From a virus (Duplodnaviria; Caudoviricetes), in IMG/VR virus record IMGVR_UViG_3300028792_000009, positions 1-26,996 of that record: 26,996 nucleotides of DNA; one strand, written 5' to 3'. Numbering within the stretch: the stretch's first letter is position 1; each line of letters begins with the position of its first letter. The translations under genes and the position numbers were made by a program. The notes under the pieces are model-generated. The model saw only the letters and a program-made list of their open reading frames with translations, ran no database searches and was not told the origin of the DNA. Shown here piece by piece: positions 12,635 to 26,996 of the stretch.

Positions 12635-14362
12635 ATGTCGGAGCAGACGCCGGAAACCAACCACTTCGGTCTGACGCGCATTGGTCAGGGAGAGCAACTC
12701 TCCAAAAATGGATACGCGTTCAGTGACCTGGACCGAGTGTCGCTCGACAACATCCTGTACGCAGCCATCACGCACAGCCACGACGGTTCGAACCGACTCG
12801 CTGACCCTGTGGTGCCAGCCACGCTGGCTGCTGCCCCGCTAGGCGGCACGCTGCCTGCTGGCACGACCTTCTACTACCGCGTCAGTCTGGTGGACCGTTA
12901 CGGCCTGGAGACCGCTGCGAGCCCTGAGACCTCGGTGACCACTGCACCCCCACTGAGTGCCCCAACGCCTCCCAGCGCGGTCGTGGAGACGACCAGCGGC
13001 AGCATCTCGCCAGGTACCTGGTCATACATCCTCACGTACATCACCAGCACGGGCGGCGAGACGACCATCTCGTCCCCGAACAACGTGCAGGTCACCACCG
13101 GCAACACGAACCGCATCCGGCTGACCTTGCCGGTCATGCCGACCGGGGCCTCAGGGTTCCGGATCTACCGCTCCCGGCCTGGTCAGAGCCAGTTCTACTA
13201 CCTAGACCAGACCACGAGCACCTCGTACTACGACCCCGGCAACGCCGAGGACCAGACGATCACCAACCCGACCGTCAACACCACGAACAGCACCAACGCC
13301 ATCACAGTGACGATCCCTGGTGGCACCATCCCGGTGGACTGCATGGGCTGGAAGGTCTATCGCGCGCTCGACTCAGGCGGCTACGACGGCAACAGCCTCG
13401 TGCACTTCGTGGTCGAGGGCAGTTCAGACACCAGTACAGATGTGAACACGACCTTCGTGGACACGGGCGCTGCGCTCGTCCAGGGCTTTCCTAAGGATGT
13501 CTCGTCGACGATTCCTGGCGGGACTGTCGTCAACCTCAACCAGTTGACTGGCCAGATCCCACTGAACTCCGCGCCGCGTGGTTCTCGGGTCGTCTCAGCG
13601 TTCGCCCCAGGGCTTACGGCAGATCAGACGGTCGTCACAATCACGAACACCCCGATCCCAGTGCGTCCGCTGCGCCTGACGGCGTACTTCCAGCACGCTC
13701 TGACCGACACCGGTGTCGACATCAAGATCCGGGTGCTCGACTCAGCGGCGACGCCCAACTACATCGAACTGGACTGCCCGACAGCCCCGGCGACGCCGAC
13801 TGGGCCTCCCGGCTACTTCGTCCTGAACTACCCGGACTACCTGGGTCAGGTCTTCGAGGCTGAGGAGGGCACACGCAGCGCCAACGAAATCGTGCCCATC
13901 GTGACCGACGTGGCTGCTTCTAACGGCCAGGCAGTGGCTCTGGATGCCCAGAACGAGTACGTCCAGCAGTCTCTCGGGGTCCTGACGCAGGGCGACTACC
14001 AGTTCTTCGCCACCGTGCGGGTGCCTGCGTACACGTCGAACACGAACGACCTCACCATCCAGGCCGTCAATGGCAGCGACAACAGCGTGATTGCTGCGGT
14101 GTCGATGTCGCCAGGACAGGCTCCATATGGACAGACGGCCAACTACATCGAGTACACCGGGCCGTCCTTCACTGCGCCAGGAAATGTGGAGGTCATCCTG
14201 CGAGTGGTGAAGTCGACTACGGCTGCTCAGGCGTACTACGTCGACACGATGCGCTACGCCGCGACCGTGCCGCTGCTCCAGCCAGGCACGTTGACGTTCG
14301 AGACGTACGTATCGGGCGTTAACACCACAGCCCGTGACTGCAACATCGCTCTTTGGTTCTAG
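12635..14362 (+). CDS. Tail fibre / minor tail protein (575 aa) with FN3-like modules and a CBM6/35-like domain
   Basis: N-terminal T.HFGL.R anchor-like motif, GGTLPAGTTFYYRVS.VD.YG.ET modules, and FEAEEG...D.AASNGQAV typical of CBM6/CBM35-like domains. Confidence 0.8.
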   Translation: MSEQTPETNHFGLTRIGQGEQLSKNGYAFSDLDRVSLDNILYAAITHSHDGSNRLADPVVPATLAAAPLGGTLPAGTTFYYRVSLVDRYGLETAASPETSVTTAPPLSAPTPPSAVVETTSGSISPGTWSYILTYITSTGGETTISSPNNVQVTTGNTNRIRLTLPVMPTGASGFRIYRSRPGQSQFYYLDQTTSTSYYDPGNAEDQTITNPTVNTTNSTNAITVTIPGGTIPVDCMGWKVYRALDSGGYDGNSLVHFVVEGSSDTSTDVNTTFVDTGAALVQGFPKDVSSTIPGGTVVNLNQLTGQIPLNSAPRGSRVVSAFAPGLTADQTVVTITNTPIPVRPLRLTAYFQHALTDTGVDIKIRVLDSAATPNYIELDCPTAPATPTGPPGYFVLNYPDYLGQVFEAEEGTRSANEIVPIVTDVAASNGQAVALDAQNEYVQQSLGVLTQGDYQFFATVRVPAYTSNTNDLTIQAVNGSDNSVIAAVSMSPGQAPYGQTANYIEYTGPSFTAPGNVEVILRVVKSTTAAQAYYVDTMRYAATVPLLQPGTLTFETYVSGVNTTARDCNIALWF

Positions 14363-14376
14363 TACTAGCGACCATC

Positions 14377-14429
14377 TGAACCCGAACATAACCGACTGTC
14401 CTTTAAGGACAAGGAGGGTTCGGTGTTCA
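14377..14429 (+). promoter_or_regulatory. Predicted RNA stem-loop covering the start codon of the first lysis-region gene
   Basis: TGAAC-CCGAAC (14377-14387) pairs with GTTCGG(T)GTTCA (14418-14429), which contains GTG 14423. Inner stem TGTCCT/AGGACA (14397-14411). Confidence 0.5.
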
Positions 14430-14872
14430 TCCACACGCTGATGCTTTGGGCAGCGGATCCTTCACCGATCCCGTCACCCACGGGTAGCGGGGGGTCGGAA
14501 GGAGGTGGCTTTCACTTGGATCTGAACCAGATCTTCACGTTCGCTCAGTTCGGTCTGCTGGGCGTCTTCTTCGTCATGCTCATCTCCAAGAAGTACGTCG
14601 TTCCAAAATGGACGCTCGACTCTTTGGAGCAGACTCATGAACGTGAACTCAAGGACAAGGCTGATGCTCACGCCCGCGAACTAGCGATCCGTGACCAGCA
14701 GTTGGCAGCGTCAGAACAACGCGAGAAGGACCTCAAGAAGAACCTGGACGACCTCCAAGATCTCACCCGGCAGCAGATGCTTCCGGCCATGATCGAAGCC
14801 AACCGTCTTACTGCGCTGTACGTCGACACGTTGGCGCGTCGTGGTGGGTCTGGAGGCGGTGATGGCCGATAA
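14423..14872 (+). CDS. Membrane protein (1 TM plus coiled coil), holin-like or lysis accessory
   Basis: Strong RBS AAGGAGG and GTG start. TM segment IFTFAQFGLLGVFFVMLI followed by YVVPKW and a charged coiled coil, a layout typical of actinophage pre-lysin membrane genes. Confidence 0.75.
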   Translation: MFIHTLMLWAADPSPIPSPTGSGGSEGGGFHLDLNQIFTFAQFGLLGVFFVMLISKKYVVPKWTLDSLEQTHERELKDKADAHARELAIRDQQLAASEQREKDLKKNLDDLQDLTRQQMLPAMIEANRLTALYVDTLARRGGSGGGDGR

Positions 14873-15017
14873 GCAGTATGAGGATCTAAGTGTTGAGAGC
14901 CTTCGACTGATCGTCCAAAGCCAGATGGTTCTGGCTGATCTCCAGCGCAATCAACACCGCCTGGAAGAACTGATTGACGATCTTGAAAACACAGCAGAGG
15001 AGAAAAACAGTGAGTAG
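14862..15017 (+). CDS. Small coiled-coil protein (51 aa), absent from the ORF track
   Basis: RBS GGAGG at 14852-14856, ATG 14862, TAG 15015-15017. Sequence MADKQYEDLSVESLRLIVQSQMVLADLQRNQHRLEELIDDLENTAEEKNSE. It overlaps both neighbours. Confidence 0.7.
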   Translation: MADKQYEDLSVESLRLIVQSQMVLADLQRNQHRLEELIDDLENTAEEKNSE

Positions 15018-15630
15018 TCGAGCAGAACGCGAGGCCGTCACTGCTGTCACGAAGGCCGAAGCCGCCAAGAGCAAGCAAGAAGCAGAGAACATCATTCAGG
15101 CGGCAGTGACCGCTAAGGATGTTGACGAACTGCGTACTGCTGTTGTCACGCTGGCTGGTCGAGTGACCTCCCTGTCTGATGCACTTACCGCCGTCAATGA
15201 AATCCAGCAACGCCAGACCGAGACTGAGCGCAAGACGGCAGCCATCGAAAAGGATGCCGCTAGCGCTAAGCAGGTTGCTATTGAACTGGCTGACACCACG
15301 GTGACCAAGGTTGATGCCGCGAAGGCAGCCCAGGCCCAGTTGGAGAAGGAGAAGCACGCCCGCAAGGAGACGATGACCAAGATCTACCAGTCAGTAGGTG
15401 CGGTCAGCCTGCTGTTCCTGGCGATCATCGTCGGCCTGGTCAACTACCAGCAAGGTAAGCAGAGTTCGCTTTACACGGTGTGCCAGCAGCGCAACATCCA
15501 GAACCAGAAGGTTCTCACGGTGTTGAGCCGTACCGATCCTTCGTACCCGCCACCCACGGAGGTTCAGAAGAAGAACCTTCAAGACCTTCGTGACGCCTTC
15601 GCTGTCACTGATTGTGGGAAGTTGAAATGA
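15010..15630 (+). CDS. Membrane protein: N-terminal coiled coil, 1 TM, short C-terminal domain with two Cys
   Basis: The likely start is GTG 15010 after GAGGAG. TM segment VGAVSLLFLAIIVGLV. C-terminal VCQQRN...TDCGKLK. Confidence 0.75.
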   Translation: MSSRAEREAVTAVTKAEAAKSKQEAENIIQAAVTAKDVDELRTAVVTLAGRVTSLSDALTAVNEIQQRQTETERKTAAIEKDAASAKQVAIELADTTVTKVDAAKAAQAQLEKEKHARKETMTKIYQSVGAVSLLFLAIIVGLVNYQQGKQSSLYTVCQQRNIQNQKVLTVLSRTDPSYPPPTEVQKKNLQDLRDAFAVTDCGKLK

Positions 15631-15995
15631 CGCACCCCGCTGTAGCCCTTTTTGTCGTGTCCAACCTGGTGATCGTGTTGGGCTACATGTTCTTGTCGGT
15701 GTTCGTGGTTCCTCGGGTCACCGTGCATCTGAATCGCACCAAGATCGGCGGGATCATTTTCTTCGCTACCTGCGGCTTGCACCACTTGGAGAACGTTTTC
15801 CACGTGCTCTACCAGCCGTTGGAGTCGAACCGGGAAACGATGACCGCCATTCATATGCTGCTCATTGACGTACCACAGGCTGTGGCTGTCTGGCTGTTCG
15901 TTTCTGGCCTGTACCTGGAGGTCGTTCGGTGGGGTCCGTGGGCCACGCCGCAAGCCATTGACGAAGGCCCCGCTGAGGACCTCGCTCAGTCCTGA
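15627..15995 (+). CDS. 3-TM membrane protein resembling the ethylene-receptor (ETR1-type) ligand-binding domain
   Basis: ATGA overlap at 15627. TM1 SNLVIVLGY, TM2 FFATCGLHHL and TM3 LIDVPQAVAVW align by eye with ETR1 SDFFIAIAY, FIVLCGATHL and TAKVLTAVVS. Confidence 0.6.
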   Translation: MTHPAVALFVVSNLVIVLGYMFLSVFVVPRVTVHLNRTKIGGIIFFATCGLHHLENVFHVLYQPLESNRETMTAIHMLLIDVPQAVAVWLFVSGLYLEVVRWGPWATPQAIDEGPAEDLAQS

Positions 15996-16012
15996 ACGTT
16001 CGCATGTCGAAA

Positions 16013-16043
16013 CTTTCCAGAGCAGCAAGACACCTCTGGAAGG
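16013..16043 (+). promoter_or_regulatory. Hairpin occluding the endolysin Shine-Dalgarno
   Basis: CTTTCCAGAG (16013-16022) pairs with CTCTGGAAGG (16034-16043), 10 bp with one G-U. The ATG is at 16050. Confidence 0.55.
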
Positions 16044-16049
16044 AAGCAC

Positions 16050-16769
16050 ATGGCTACAGCACAGGACCTGGATCGCGTTGTCGAAGGCCAGGTCGGCTAC
16101 GTGGAGAAGGGTGGTCGGGACGGTAAGTCCGGCAACCTGACTAAGTTCGGTGCTGCGTACGGCCTCGACGGCTATGCGTGGTGCAGCATGTTTGTCTGGT
16201 GGTGTTTCAAGCAGGTCGGCATCGACGTGCGCCACGACGTGTCTGGTTCCTACGCATCCGCTGAGGGTGCGATGGAAGGCTTCCAGAAGCACGGTTGGAA
16301 GATCGTCAAGAGCCCGCGCCTCATGGACGTGGTGTTCTTCCACTTCCAGGGTGAGCACGCGGGTGCCAACCACACTGGGTTCGTCGTTTCTGCTGACGCT
16401 GGCGGCGTGCACACCATTGAGGGGAATACTTCTGCCGGTGATGGCGGCTCACAGGTAAACGGTGGCGGTGTCTACCGTCGTTACCGTCCGTACAGCGTGA
16501 TCATCGGCTACGGGCGCTACCCGCTTGCTGGTGGATCTCCTGCCGTTCCTCGTCCTGCGCCGGTTGGTCCTGGCAAGAAGTACCCGACGCTTCACGAGGG
16601 TCTAAGTAACGACAACAACGTGAAGCGCATGCAGACGTTGCTGCACATCGCTGCTGACGGCGACTTCGGTCCTGCCACCAAGAAGGCCGTCATGACATTC
16701 CAGAAGACGCACCACCTTGCGGTGGATGGCGTGGCTGGTCCGGCAACTCTCAAGGTGATGGGATTCTGA
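16050..16769 (+). CDS. Endolysin: CHAP domain plus C-terminal PG_binding_1 domain
   Basis: CHAP catalytic motifs AWCSMFV, HTGFV and TIEGNTS, then a Pro-rich linker, then DGDFGPAT..AV..FQ..H.L.VDGVAGPAT. Confidence 0.92.
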   Translation: MATAQDLDRVVEGQVGYVEKGGRDGKSGNLTKFGAAYGLDGYAWCSMFVWWCFKQVGIDVRHDVSGSYASAEGAMEGFQKHGWKIVKSPRLMDVVFFHFQGEHAGANHTGFVVSADAGGVHTIEGNTSAGDGGSQVNGGGVYRRYRPYSVIIGYGRYPLAGGSPAVPRPAPVGPGKKYPTLHEGLSNDNNVKRMQTLLHIAADGDFGPATKKAVMTFQKTHHLAVDGVAGPATLKVMGF

Positions 16770-17281
16770 TGGCCGTCTCAAAGAACACACAGGCACTGAT
16801 CGACAAGGCTGTTGCCGAGGCTCTTGCTGATGCTGGCAAGGGCCTGGTCGTTGCGTCGAGCAAGCCCAACCAGATCAACAACCTGCGGGCCACCTGGCGT
16901 ACGAGCGCCGAGCACGGTGCGGAGCAGGTCAAGCGCTTCCTGCGTCTGACCGTCGTCTCTGCGGTGCCAGCCATCGTGTCAGCCATCGTGGCTGCGACGA
17001 CCGCGCACACGTCCTTCGACTGGAAGACGCTGCTGGCGTTGATCGTCCCGTTCGCGGAGACGGCCTACCGTCAGGTCTTCCCGGCACTGGGGGCTGCGGC
17101 TGCTGACTCAGCACCCGGAGTGACCATCGTGCCCGACCAGGTTGGTGCACAGACTGTGGATGTCGCTGTGGATCCCGCGACCGTTCAGGTGGCGGTAGGT
17201 GACAGTGGCGCTGGAGGTACAGGTGGTGACGGTGGCACGACTGACATGTCCGGTATGACCGATCCGGGCGGCACTCAGTAG
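16769..17281 (+). CDS. Putative holin
   Basis: TGATG overlap with the lysin. Two hydrophobic segments (LTVVSAVPAIVSAIVAA; WKTLLALIVPFA) and an acidic Gly-rich tail. Confidence 0.65.
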   Translation: MAVSKNTQALIDKAVAEALADAGKGLVVASSKPNQINNLRATWRTSAEHGAEQVKRFLRLTVVSAVPAIVSAIVAATTAHTSFDWKTLLALIVPFAETAYRQVFPALGAAAADSAPGVTIVPDQVGAQTVDVAVDPATVQVAVGDSGAGGTGGDGGTTDMSGMTDPGGTQ

Positions 17282-17289
17282 CACTCACG

Positions 17290-17338
17290 AGCACCGAAGC
17301 CCCGCTCTCTCTGATCAGGAGCGGGGCTTCGTGCTGTT
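17290..17338 (+). terminator. Intrinsic terminator ending the late/lysis operon
   Basis: Perfect 13-bp stem CGAAGCCCCGCTC (17295-17307) / GAGCGGGGCTTCG (17319-17331), extendable with AGCA/TGCT, just after the holin stop. The U-tract is weak. Confidence 0.8.
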
Positions 17339-17365
17339 CACAGCGTGTGGACATCCTGGGGATAA
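17334..17365. promoter_or_regulatory. Cluster of three DnaA-box-like 9-mers
   Basis: CTGTTCACA (17334-17342, +), ATGTCCACA (17346-17354, -) and TTATCCCCA (17357-17365, -), each 1-2 mismatches from TT(G/A)TCCACA. Confidence 0.5.
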
Positions 17366-17387
17366 CGACACTCGTGTGATTCGGTCC

Positions 17388-17418
17388 TTGACAGGCTGCA
17401 CACACACCCCGTAGGACT
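17388..17418 (+). promoter_or_regulatory. Possible sigma70/HrdB-type promoter for the replication module
   Basis: Perfect TTGACA at 17388-17393, an 18-nt spacer, then an imperfect -10 TAGGAC(T). Confidence 0.4.
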
Positions 17419-17532
17419 TGATACCTCAACTCCGGAGCCGAACCTCGACCCGTCTCCGGCTGGCGTTGAGCGAACTGTCAGAGGTGCCTGATTGGCTACC
17501 TCCATGCCTGAAAACGGACGGGAGCGCGTTCT

Positions 17533-18339
17533 GTGATCGTTCGTCAGAGCACGCTCAAGACGTGGATGGAGTGCAACCTCAAGTACTACTGGCAGCACGA
17601 GCAGTCAGCACAACGTGACCAGTCGAGCGCGCTCTCATGGGGCTCGACCATTCACGAGGCGGTACTGGCGATGGAGGTCGCCGGTGATCTACAGGTAGGA
17701 CTCGACAAGTTCTGTGCGGTCTGGGATGACCTTCCGGCTCACGGCCTTGACTACGACTACCTCCTTCCCAGGAATACTCACCTGGGCTACCGAGAAATGG
17801 GGATCAACTCGCTCCGCGCATGGTGGGGGCTGATCCAGTGGGAAAGTGATGTCGTTCTCGGACGGGAGTACCCGTTCTCGGTTCCGTTGGGGACCCACAC
17901 GCTGACGGGCACCATCGACAAACTTGCGCTTCGTCAAATGAAGCACGGGGAGTGGGTGGTGCTGGTCAGCGATTACAAGACCAGCGCCAAAGCACCGACA
18001 CGCGATTATCTCGCACACGACATTCAGTTCTCGGCGTACTGCTACGCAACTACACAGCCCGAGTTTTGGGTCAACATCCCTGACGGGGATCTCTTGTACG
18101 AGAAGTACAAGGACGCTCGTCGGTTCGGTGAGTGGGCGCACCTGCGTACCACGAAGCGCATCGACGCTGGAGTGCGGGAGGACTACCACTACCGCCGCTT
18201 GCAGTACCTGATCGACAACATGGAGAACTCCATCGCCATGGGGATTTTCAACCCTCAGGTGACTGGTGCCTCCTGTGAATACTGTGAGTTCCGTAAGGTC
18301 TGTGGCCTTCCTTCCCGCGAGGAAGAGGGTCTGGAATGA
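17533..18339 (+). CDS. Cas4/RecB-like PD-(D/E)XK exonuclease
   Basis: N-terminal S.LKTW.EC, G..IH, E.PF, G.ID, DYKT, Q..AY and C-terminal C..C.F...C (four-Cys Fe-S staple). Confidence 0.9.
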   Translation: MIVRQSTLKTWMECNLKYYWQHEQSAQRDQSSALSWGSTIHEAVLAMEVAGDLQVGLDKFCAVWDDLPAHGLDYDYLLPRNTHLGYREMGINSLRAWWGLIQWESDVVLGREYPFSVPLGTHTLTGTIDKLALRQMKHGEWVVLVSDYKTSAKAPTRDYLAHDIQFSAYCYATTQPEFWVNIPDGDLLYEKYKDARRFGEWAHLRTTKRIDAGVREDYHYRRLQYLIDNMENSIAMGIFNPQVTGASCEYCEFRKVCGLPSREEEGLE

Positions 18340-24952: not shown

Positions 24953-26996
24953 ATGCTGTCGTTCACGCTGCCCGATGAGTTCGTAGAGGGCTATGCGAAG
25001 ACCCCCGTGAAGTGGGGCTACCCGGATGCTGGTGGCAACTCCATCGGCGAGATCACCTACCTGCGTTCGTACAGCCGTCTGAAAGAAGACGGCACGAAGG
25101 AACGCTGGCACGAGACCTGTGCTCGTGTCGTCAACGGCATGTACTCGATCCAGAAGGACTGGTGCAAGAACAACAGCCTTCCCTGGAACGAGAAGCAGGG
25201 TCAGAACTCCGCACAGGAGTGCTACGACCGCATGTTCAACATGAAGTGGCTGCCGCCTGGTCGTGGCATCTGGATGATGGGCACGCCGTTCGTGCACGAG
25301 CGTGGCAACTCTGCTGCGCTCCAGAACTGCGCGTTCGTGTCGACCTCCGACATGAACAAGCGCCACCCTGAGAAGCCGTTCGCCTTCCTCATGGAGGCGA
25401 GCATGCTGGGTGTCGGCGTCGGCTTTGACACCGAGGGTGCACTCAAGGGCATCCAGATCCAGAACCCGACTGGCAAGCCTGACGTGTACGTCGTGCCTGA
25501 CACGCGCGAGGGCTGGGTCGAGAGCATGTCGCTGCTGCTCCGCTCCTACATGGTGCCGAAGCAGACGCCCGTCTCTTTCGACTACAGCGAGGTACGTGAG
25601 GCTGGCCTGCCCATCAAGGGCTTCGGCGGTACGGCTGCCGGACCTGACCCGCTGATCAGCCTGCACGACCGCCTACGCGAGCAGTTCAACGGTCGTGGTG
25701 GCGAGACGGTCGGCGTCACTGACATCGTGGACATCGCCAACCACATCGGCGTCTGCGTCGTCGCTGGCAACGTGCGCCGCTCGGCTGAGATCGCACTAGG
25801 TGAGCCTGGCGACAAGGAGTTCCTGGACCTCAAGAACTACGGGACCATGGACGAGGACGGCATGGTCCTCCCAGGCATGGAGGGTCCGTCCTTCCACCGC
25901 ATGGCGTACGGCTGGATGTCCAACAACAGCATCCGCGTCACCGGTGACATCGACTACGGCCCGTACGTTCAGCCGATCCAGACCAACGGCGAGCCTGGCT
26001 TCCTCTACATGGACCTGGCTCGTGCATATGGACGCCTGGTAGATCCGCCGAACAACAAGGACTACCGCGCTAAGGGCGTCAACCCGTGCGGTGAGCAGAC
26101 GCTGGAGTCCTACGAGTGCTGCACGCTCGTGGAGACGTTCCCGACCAACTGCGAGGACAAGGCTGACTTCGAGCGCACGCTCAAGTTCGCCTACCTCTAC
26201 GCGAAGAGCGTGACCTTGGTGGCGACGCACTGGCCGGAGACGAACGCTGTCATGCAGCGCAACCGTCGCATCGGTACGAGCGTCTCCGGCATGGCGCAGT
26301 TCGTGGAGCAGCACGGCTGGACCGAACTGCGCACCTGGTTGAACGACGGCTACTCCGTCGTCCAGGACTGGGACACCATGTACTCGGAATGGCTGGGTGT
26401 CCGTACGTCCATCAAGACCACCAGCGTCAAGCCCTCAGGCTCGGTGTCGCTGGTCGCTGGCGTCACGCCTGGTGTGCACTGGCCGGTCTACGGCGACTAC
26501 ATCCGTCGCATGCGCCTGGGTAAGAACGACCCGCTCACGCTGGCCTGTGAGAAGGCTGGCTACAAGATCGAGCCGTGCATCGGCACCGAAGAGACGACCG
26601 TCGTTGTCGAGTTCCCAGTGCGTGGTCTGAACGTGCGCACCGAGAAGCAGGTGTCGGTCTTCGAGAAGGCTGCACTGGGTGTGTTGGCTCAGCGTTACTG
26701 GGCTGACAACCAGGTCTCCATGACGCTCACGTTCGACCCGGAGACAGAGGCTCAGCACATTGGGACGATCCTCCAGATGCACGAGGGTCAGTTGAAAAGC
26801 CTGTCGTTCCTCCCGATCAAGCCTGACAAGCAGTACAAGCAACTGCCGTACGAGGCGATCACCGAGGAGCAGTTCGACACGTACAAGGGCCTCCAACGAC
26901 TGGACCTTGAACTGTTGTACAACGGGGAAGGTGTTGTTGAGGCCGCAGGTGAGGCTTACTGCACCACTGATAAGTGTGAGATCAAGATCATCCCCC
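24953..26996 (+). CDS. nrdJ: Class II adenosylcobalamin-dependent ribonucleotide reductase, monomeric RTPR type (stop lies beyond the window)
   Basis: My translation from ATG 24953 gives TYLRSYSR, WLPPGRG.W, ALQNCAF, LGVGVGFD, GNVRRSAEI, NPCGEQ.LESYECCTLVE, RNRRIG, TSVKPSG and C-terminal YCTTDKC. It is missing from the ORF track because there is no stop in the window. Confidence 0.95.
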   Translation, partial: MLSFTLPDEFVEGYAKTPVKWGYPDAGGNSIGEITYLRSYSRLKEDGTKERWHETCARVVNGMYSIQKDWCKNNSLPWNEKQGQNSAQECYDRMFNMKWLPPGRGIWMMGTPFVHERGNSAALQNCAFVSTSDMNKRHPEKPFAFLMEASMLGVGVGFDTEGALKGIQIQNPTGKPDVYVVPDTREGWVESMSLLLRSYMVPKQTPVSFDYSEVREAGLPIKGFGGTAAGPDPLISLHDRLREQFNGRGGETVGVTDIVDIANHIGVCVVAGNVRRSAEIALGEPGDKEFLDLKNYGTMDEDGMVLPGMEGPSFHRMAYGWMSNNSIRVTGDIDYGPYVQPIQTNGEPGFLYMDLARAYGRLVDPPNNKDYRAKGVNPCGEQTLESYECCTLVETFPTNCEDKADFERTLKFAYLYAKSVTLVATHWPETNAVMQRNRRIGTSVSGMAQFVEQHGWTELRTWLNDGYSVVQDWDTMYSEWLGVRTSIKTTSVKPSGSVSLVAGVTPGVHWPVYGDYIRRMRLGKNDPLTLACEKAGYKIEPCIGTEETTVVVEFPVRGLNVRTEKQVSVFEKAALGVLAQRYWADNQVSMTLTFDPETEAQHIGTILQMHEGQLKSLSFLPIKPDKQYKQLPYEAITEEQFDTYKGLQRLDLELLYNGEGVVEAAGEAYCTTDKCEIKIIP

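Follow-up and report, generated by a model that had tools for sequence, protein, structure and literature searches.

Background

In the ethylene receptor ETR1, Cu(I) is held by Cys65 and His69. The timing of phage lysis is usually viewed as the work of an internal holin clock, and lysis inhibition in T4 is the main exception in which an outside input takes part: with the T4 holin T and antiholin RI, an outside signal acts via a one-helix holin that has a Cys-containing outer domain, the signal being superinfection and not a metal or a gas. According to the available part of a report on F1 mycobacteriophages (PMC13056207), these phages encode a two-helix LysF1a and a one-helix LysF1b with a long charged helix, in genes joined by a -4 ATGA overlap, and both proteins are required for efficient lysis. 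AzoEtr1 carries all seven residues required for ethylene binding and binds ethylene, as stated in the accessible portion of PMC11819568. Here we describe a phage gene that an earlier note, made from the DNA letters alone, had taken for a stand-alone relative of the ethylene-binding domain embedded in a lysis cassette.

The locus and its surroundings

The window, that is, the whole stretch of DNA analysed here, is a linear virus record of 27 kb (26,996 nucleotides), about 25% complete, from a phage of soil type. It runs from tail-like genes (to 14362) through a membrane/lysis block (14423-17281) and a hairpin to replication genes. At 24953-26996, the start of a large ORF, ribonucleotide reductase-like by eye, is cut at the contig end. 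A BldC-like gene in a related complete phage (G002) and the nearest cellular homologue of the protein under study, found in a Solirubrobacteraceae genome, point to an actinobacterial host. The membrane/lysis block and the hairpin comprise the following features.

14423..14872 (+): single N-terminal transmembrane (TM) helix and charged helical tail, resembling LysF1b in topology only
14862..15017 (+), alternative start 14841: small acidic coiled-coil ORF, 51 aa
15010..15630 (+): coiled coil (cytoplasmic), single TM helix and short outer domain with two Cys, candidate partner
15627..15995 (+): ETR1_N-like three-helix membrane protein, stand-alone, of the His-rich Asn25 clade, 122 aa
16050..16769 (+): endolysin, CHAP and PG_binding_1
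16769..17281 (+): putative holin-like membrane protein, sharing 1 bp with the endolysin gene
17290..17336 (+): strong hairpin closing the cassette, -35.9 kcal/mol

The endolysin is recognised by Pfam (E 2.9e-10 and 3.1e-13) and by PHROG (endolysin, E 2.3e-27). The gene that follows it gave no confident profile match in Pfam or PHROG, and its product is a putative holin by position and hydrophobicity. The hairpin, whose stability was equalled by none of 200 shuffles (z -4.76), is a probable terminator; no sigma-70 promoter consensus was found in 14200-17600. Upstream, Pfam, PHROG and NCBIfam scans returned no known family for the products of 15010..15630 and 14862..15017, and a Pfam scan returned no DUF2746 match for that of 14423..14872, to which a similar gene is present in another locus of the clade (L003).

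The ETR1_N-like ORF lies, as had been claimed, directly upstream of the endolysin, ending 54 bp before the endolysin start at 16050, and its own start sits in a 4-bp ATGA overlap with the stop of 15010-15630. Both motifs described earlier are present (S12-N13-x-x-I16-x-x-x-Y20 and F45-F46-x-x-C49-G-x-x-H53-L), and an AlphaFold2 model (mean pLDDT 91.9, pTM 0.79) places the three expected TM helices at residues 4-30, 36-62 and 75-102. The protein stops about 20 residues past helix 3 and has, as the earlier note held, no output domain. The basic loop at 30-40, between helices 1 and 2, suggests an N-out/C-in topology, as in ETR1.

Relationship to the ethylene-binding domain

Judged by sequence comparison, the 15627-15995 protein is a real but remote and divergent relative of ETR1_N. 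This family is its sole Pfam match (E 0.0055), at 17.4 bits against a gathering cut-off of 27 bits; no PHROG or NCBIfam family was found for it. A profile match to the ethylene-binding domain, the test set beforehand for this kinship, was obtained with hhalign at 96.6% (E 6.6e-10) over 63 columns when the family profile was compared with that of 23 canonical viral ETR1_N sequences, the alignment spanning helices 1-2 only; a second comparison over these helices gave 95.0%. N13 is paired with Asp25, Y20 with Tyr32, and the CxxxH of one profile with that of the other. The family HMM matches a canonical copy with E 1.6e-10 over profile positions 8-107 (Z=5000), and PF25487 is matched at E<=0.01 by 17 of 150 family members. 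The top ESM Atlas clusters for the protein score 0.91-0.92, and in two of them ETR1_N is found on 37% and 53% of the members. Structure searches returned generic helical bundles only (best Z 8.7, rmsd 6.2), in lists that contained no solved membrane domain of the ETR1 receptor. Readings of the protein as an MHYT or heme-binding protein found no profile match in support.

In a quick, unrooted tree of 76 rows with long branches, the canonical copies split from the clade of the window's protein and actinobacterial host sensors with 100% SH-aLRT. Most canonical viral copies have a P-H/R-x-x-C-x-x-W motif before helix 1 that is missing from the window's clade; His59 and His76 may substitute for it.

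The family of the window's protein

A word-seeded search limited to lengths of 67-214 aa gave 31 proteins out of 38 candidates, and a length-free search gave 146 matches, 143 of them of 180 aa or less, the three long ones carrying a receiver, IMPDH or EamA domain; in P0095, the clade's domain is fused to a receiver domain. Searches aimed at longer, fused proteins came back empty; this is weak evidence, and fusions surfaced by other routes. The alignment used below holds 150 of 176 proteins, after removal of the 3 long proteins, of 3 fragments and of 20 close relatives.

The Cys and His that the earlier note had singled out are conserved among these homologues (C49 in 130 and H53 in 142 of the 150, and both in all 31 close relatives), as are Y20 (140/150), F45 (147/150) and Q84 (139/150). 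The proposed Asn at the Asp25 position is borne out by the profile-profile pairing of N13 and recurs in 141 of 150 members, and the extra His residues mentioned as lying nearby, H59 and H76, are kept in 112 and 107. The claim that Lys91 is replaced by Asp stands in part: Asp81 falls at this place by spacing, on which the equivalence rests since hhalign left helix 3 unaligned. Among the 150 members, 106 have His at position 81 and 18 have Asp, with Lys outside the five commonest residues there. By helical-wheel angle, the conserved polar residues occupy a single face of each helix. As aligned, the clade is one of nearly all stand-alone proteins with Asn for Asp25 and added conserved His59, His76, His/Asp81 and Gln84.

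Locus searches with the close alignment returned no viral, no genome and three metagenome loci, the window included, and later pattern searches yielded clade members in 1/10, 2/38 (one a repeat), 1/22 and 1/5 (a repeat) and none in the last. Among cultured phages, tblastn with P0001, P0046, P0174, a canonical copy and two neighbour genes found no relative; we regard two Vibrio phage matches (E 0.5 and 1) as chance. On the host side, 301 genomes of the class to which the host of L018, a fused clade member, belongs gave 11 matches, of which 4 are apparently real. Three proteins of this class (L080-L082; two fused to GGDEF, the third short and kinase-like) share an N-x2-I-x3-Y / C-x2-HH-x2-H / WD input domain that scores below the Pfam ETR1_N cut-off, and are apparently an unnamed sensor subfamily.

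Canonical ETR1_N genes in viral contigs

Three motif scans gave at least 120, 38 and 18 loci, and after removal of chance matches and four duplicates at least 28 canonical ETR1_N genes in viral contigs remained, all above the Pfam cut-off. Among the matches listed, 23 of these 28 lack an output domain and five are fused to a kinase or STAS domain. Their Cys and His were fixed by the search pattern and therefore give no evidence of conservation. Asp25 is kept in 14 of 23 and Lys or Arg is found at position 91 in 13 of 23 among the matches listed, in a 23-row alignment that includes four kinase fusions. Full ETR1_N receptors fused to histidine kinase/STAS occur in the viral contigs L263, L260, L238, L255 and L228, three of which exceed 90 kb and two of which have a receiver gene directly downstream.

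Metal or ethylene

The conserved Cys and His make a metal site likely in the window's protein, whereas high-affinity ethylene binding appears unlikely. Of the seven residues required for ethylene binding, three are identical in the protein (Y20, C49 and H53) and four differ (N13, L23, S24 and F46), in the register of the profile-profile alignment. Asn at position 25, together with the lack of a basic residue at the Lys91 position as placed by spacing, argues against ethylene as the signal, and the extra His, Asp and Gln residues indicate some other ligand.

It could nevertheless be supposed that the protein is a true ethylene sensor of low affinity by which the phage times lysis to root or soil ethylene. 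The equivalents of Cys65 and His69 are retained, and the canonical viral copies listed often keep Asp25 and the basic residue at 91. In the accessible parts of PMC10266040 and PMC11971883, the Asp25Asn form of ETR1 is described as functional with about 100-fold lower affinity, and Asn is given as natural at this position in 3.67% of ETR1-like sequences. The same sources, to that extent, put the binding left in K91A at about 1%, which counts against a protein without a basic residue there, as does its retention of three of the seven residues; we consider an ethylene sensor very unlikely.

Neighbourhoods within the clade

Five stand-alone loci of the clade (the window, L002, L003, G002 and G003) and one fusion (L018) were reached. 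Two of these, L002 and L003, are short contigs from metagenomes, assigned to phage from synteny alone, and in each a homologue of 15010-15630 with both Cys kept lies directly upstream of the ETR1-like gene, at which the L003 contig ends; in L002 the next gene downstream encodes a stand-alone GAF domain (E 1.8e-13). In G003, the ETR1-like gene lies near the end of the tail genes and overlaps a TM-coiled-coil gene, and a lysin-family profile search recognised no lysin within the 37-kb fragment. G002 is a complete 104-kb phage with five full-length genes in common with the window phage; its ETR1-like gene stands between a TM-EAL gene and a convergent TM-GGDEF gene whose GGDEF motif is intact, 4 kb downstream of the BldC-like gene, and lysin-type matches lie 10.7 kb and 58 kb away. 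A one-TM coiled-coil gene abuts the ETR1-like gene in four of the five stand-alone loci (the window, L002, L003 and G003).

Two arrangements in these loci deserve separate mention. In G002:C1 1969-7294 (L090), the BldC-like regulator, membrane EAL, ETR1-like and membrane GGDEF genes lie together in 5.3 kb and may form a phage c-di-GMP module. In G003:C1 21611-21988 (L097 1611-1988), directly upstream of the family member, a His-rich membrane gene matches the family profile weakly (E 1.8e-4), lacks CxxxH and is a possible tandem divergent paralogue. A search of literature listings found no account of such an EAL/GGDEF phage module and no work on phage ETR1-like genes; the words 'copper' and 'ethylene' are absent from PMC9671378.

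These loci bear on whether the protein is a split receptor carried as signalling cargo, which would sense a metal or gas and signal in trans to GAF, PAS, EAL/GGDEF or a host kinase, or act as a decoy of host receptors, its place beside the lysis genes being a late-operon cargo site. The adjoining GAF gene in L002 and the gene order of G002 with its BldC-like gene speak for this, as do the fusions of the clade's domain to PAS-SpoIIE-HATPase in a host protein (L018) and to a receiver in P0095, the PAS genes that follow canonical copies in L264 and L248, and the five fusions to kinase/STAS among the 28 viral copies listed. However, none of the 20 window proteins scanned (to 22982, in a contig 25% complete) has a GAF, PAS, kinase or cyclase domain, and output genes abut a minority of the loci whereas one-TM coiled-coil genes abut the majority. 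On balance we judge the cargo reading unlikely.

A further alternative is a plain holin-like or scaffold component of three helices, in which the Cys and His bind a structural metal or pack the helices and nothing is sensed. The size, helix number and position of the protein suit holin-cassette proteins, Cys49 is missing in 20 of the 150 family members, and the paralogue-like tandem gene of G003 does without CxxxH. Against this, we know of no holin with such a conserved buried Cys/His set, and the use of the clade's domain as the input of a host phosphatase (L018) implies a switchable site. A component that senses nothing is, in our estimate, quite improbable.

Partner genes and distance to lysins

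Among the matches listed, a one-TM coiled-coil gene abuts 13 of the 23 output-less canonical copies and none of the five fused ones. The corresponding background rates are 46 of 926 genes (Fisher P 4e-11) and 2 of 24 other small multi-TM genes (P 5e-4), for a partner call made by our simple hydropathy and heptad rule and a background of genes from 180 viral loci that include the same ETR1_N loci. Three loci (L252, L281 and L249) show the same partner arrangement by eye and were kept out of this count. In single-sequence scans, the coiled-coil partners of the window and other loci matched neither DUF2746 (PF10874) nor a holin family.

Among the matches listed, 10 of the 23 output-less canonical copies have a lysin or holin recognised by profile at a distance of up to about 4 kb (L104, L272, L271, L257, L281, L252, L254 and L269, and weakly L244 and L264), the PHROG scan having taken 124 of about 188 called neighbours. 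The other 13 have no recognised lysin or holin within this distance, and in two counter-examples the distance to the lysins is 24 kb (G327) and 51 kb (G315). Because many random control loci were copies of the same genes, distances were controlled within contigs, five lysin families being used to search 30 records. Ten contigs (window included, canonical copies taken from among the matches listed) have both an output-less gene and a lysin, and in 6 of them the two are no more than 2.5 kb apart, against 1.6 expected (P 6e-4), with lysin family phrog_465 and the distance limits picked after the neighbours were seen. Without the window the count is 5 of 9 (P 0.003); with G312, which was taken as circular from a terminal overlap of 146/147, treated as linear, it is 5 of 10 (P 0.006).

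Linkage of homologues to lysis genes, another test set beforehand, is borne out in part: ETR1_N genes without an output domain lie near lysins more often than expected, and do so in unrelated phages, but in the protein's own clade an adjacent lysin is found in one of the five stand-alone loci, the window, two of the others being short fragments. The link of output-less ETR1_N genes to lysis is real but not universal.

Several neighbours of the canonical copies are of interest in themselves. The lysozyme gene beside the copy in G308 (G308:C1 6851-7279, minus strand) is broken by one in-frame TAG, which reflects read-through, recoding or an assembly error. Canonical ETR1_N genes have additional multi-helix membrane genes, which belong to no known family, beside them at L269 9278-9598 and L241 5917-6681. 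At L272 8606-9259, an insert of two genes on the opposite strand, toxin-antitoxin-like by eye, separates the endolysin gene from the lipoprotein gene in a lysis cassette that contains ETR1_N.

Proposed role

Output-less ETR1_N genes occur repeatedly in the multi-helix slot of a LysF1a/LysF1b-like pair, and we therefore adopt, tentatively, the reading that the protein carries a metal site and tunes lysis as the membrane partner of a holin component like LysF1b. The likeness to LysF1a/LysF1b is one of topology and gene order, by analogy. The divergent ETR1_N domain, without output, would hold a metal, probably Cu(I), and the protein, presumably made late together with the lysis genes, would partner neighbouring single-helix coiled-coil proteins of the lysis module, filling the slot that LysF1a holds beside the one-helix LysF1b. 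A change in the state of the metal site, through oxidation, a small gas or the supply of copper, would shift helix 3, and this shift would hold back or release the partner; the protein would likely tune when, or how strongly, lysis triggers.

Homology, the conserved Cys and His, the overlap-coupled position among membrane genes and the endolysin, and recurrence in unrelated phages support this lysis-tuning reading. It is weakened by the own-clade gene of G002 amid EAL/GGDEF genes and that of L002 beside a GAF gene, by the canonical copies with no recognised lysin or holin within about 4 kb, by partners that match no DUF2746 or holin family, and by the window's abutting partner, whose coiled coil lies ahead of its TM helix, unlike in LysF1b. 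The ETR1_N domain may serve more than one of these roles across different phages. A bolder version, which we find doubtful as a whole, is that unrelated phages infecting hosts of many phyla took up ETR1_N again and again, removed its output and coupled it to a one-helix coiled-coil holin component to form a lysis switch gated by gas, redox or copper. The His-rich clade would then be a second version, from actinobacterial phages, with a remodelled metal site and another ligand.

If a metal-site sensor does act in lysis cassettes, phages would gain a direct chemical input into the time of killing, an input that would matter in soil and around roots, where levels of oxygen, ethylene and copper change. 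Should no gating take place, these output-less proteins of 120 residues are still natural minimal versions of the receptor domain, and the His-rich clade is a natural experiment on how the Cys/His site selects its ligand.

Comparison with known systems

ETR1, SynEtr1 of Synechocystis and AzoEtr1 of Azospirillum (PF25487) share with the window's protein the three membrane helices, the D/N-x2-I-x3-Y of helix 1 and the F-x3-C-x3-H of helix 2. Unlike them, the protein has no GAF, kinase or receiver domain, is encoded by a phage and scores below the Pfam cut-off, and its clade has Asn25, no Pro36, no Lys91 by spacing, and the extra His59, His76, His/Asp81 and Gln84. The actinobacterial host sensors L018 and L080-L082 resemble the clade in the Asn of helix 1, a helix 2 of CxxHHxxH type and the His/Asp of helix 3, but these uncharacterised proteins are fused to output (SpoIIE in L018) and are not phage-borne. 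With LysF1a/LysF1b, as described in the available part of that report, the window shares a multi-helix membrane gene that overlaps a one-TM charged-helix gene in a lysis cassette. LysF1a differs in having two helices and, in that part, no reported metal motif; in the window the abutting partner lies upstream, has its coiled coil first and gives no DUF2746 match. The ETR1_N domain is known, and its free-standing phage form tied to lysis cassettes was not met in the literature listings or the cultured phages searched. New here are the recognition of the His-rich clade with Asn25, a count that links ETR1_N genes to one-TM coiled-coil genes, a test of lysin distance within contigs, and the counter-example among EAL/GGDEF genes.
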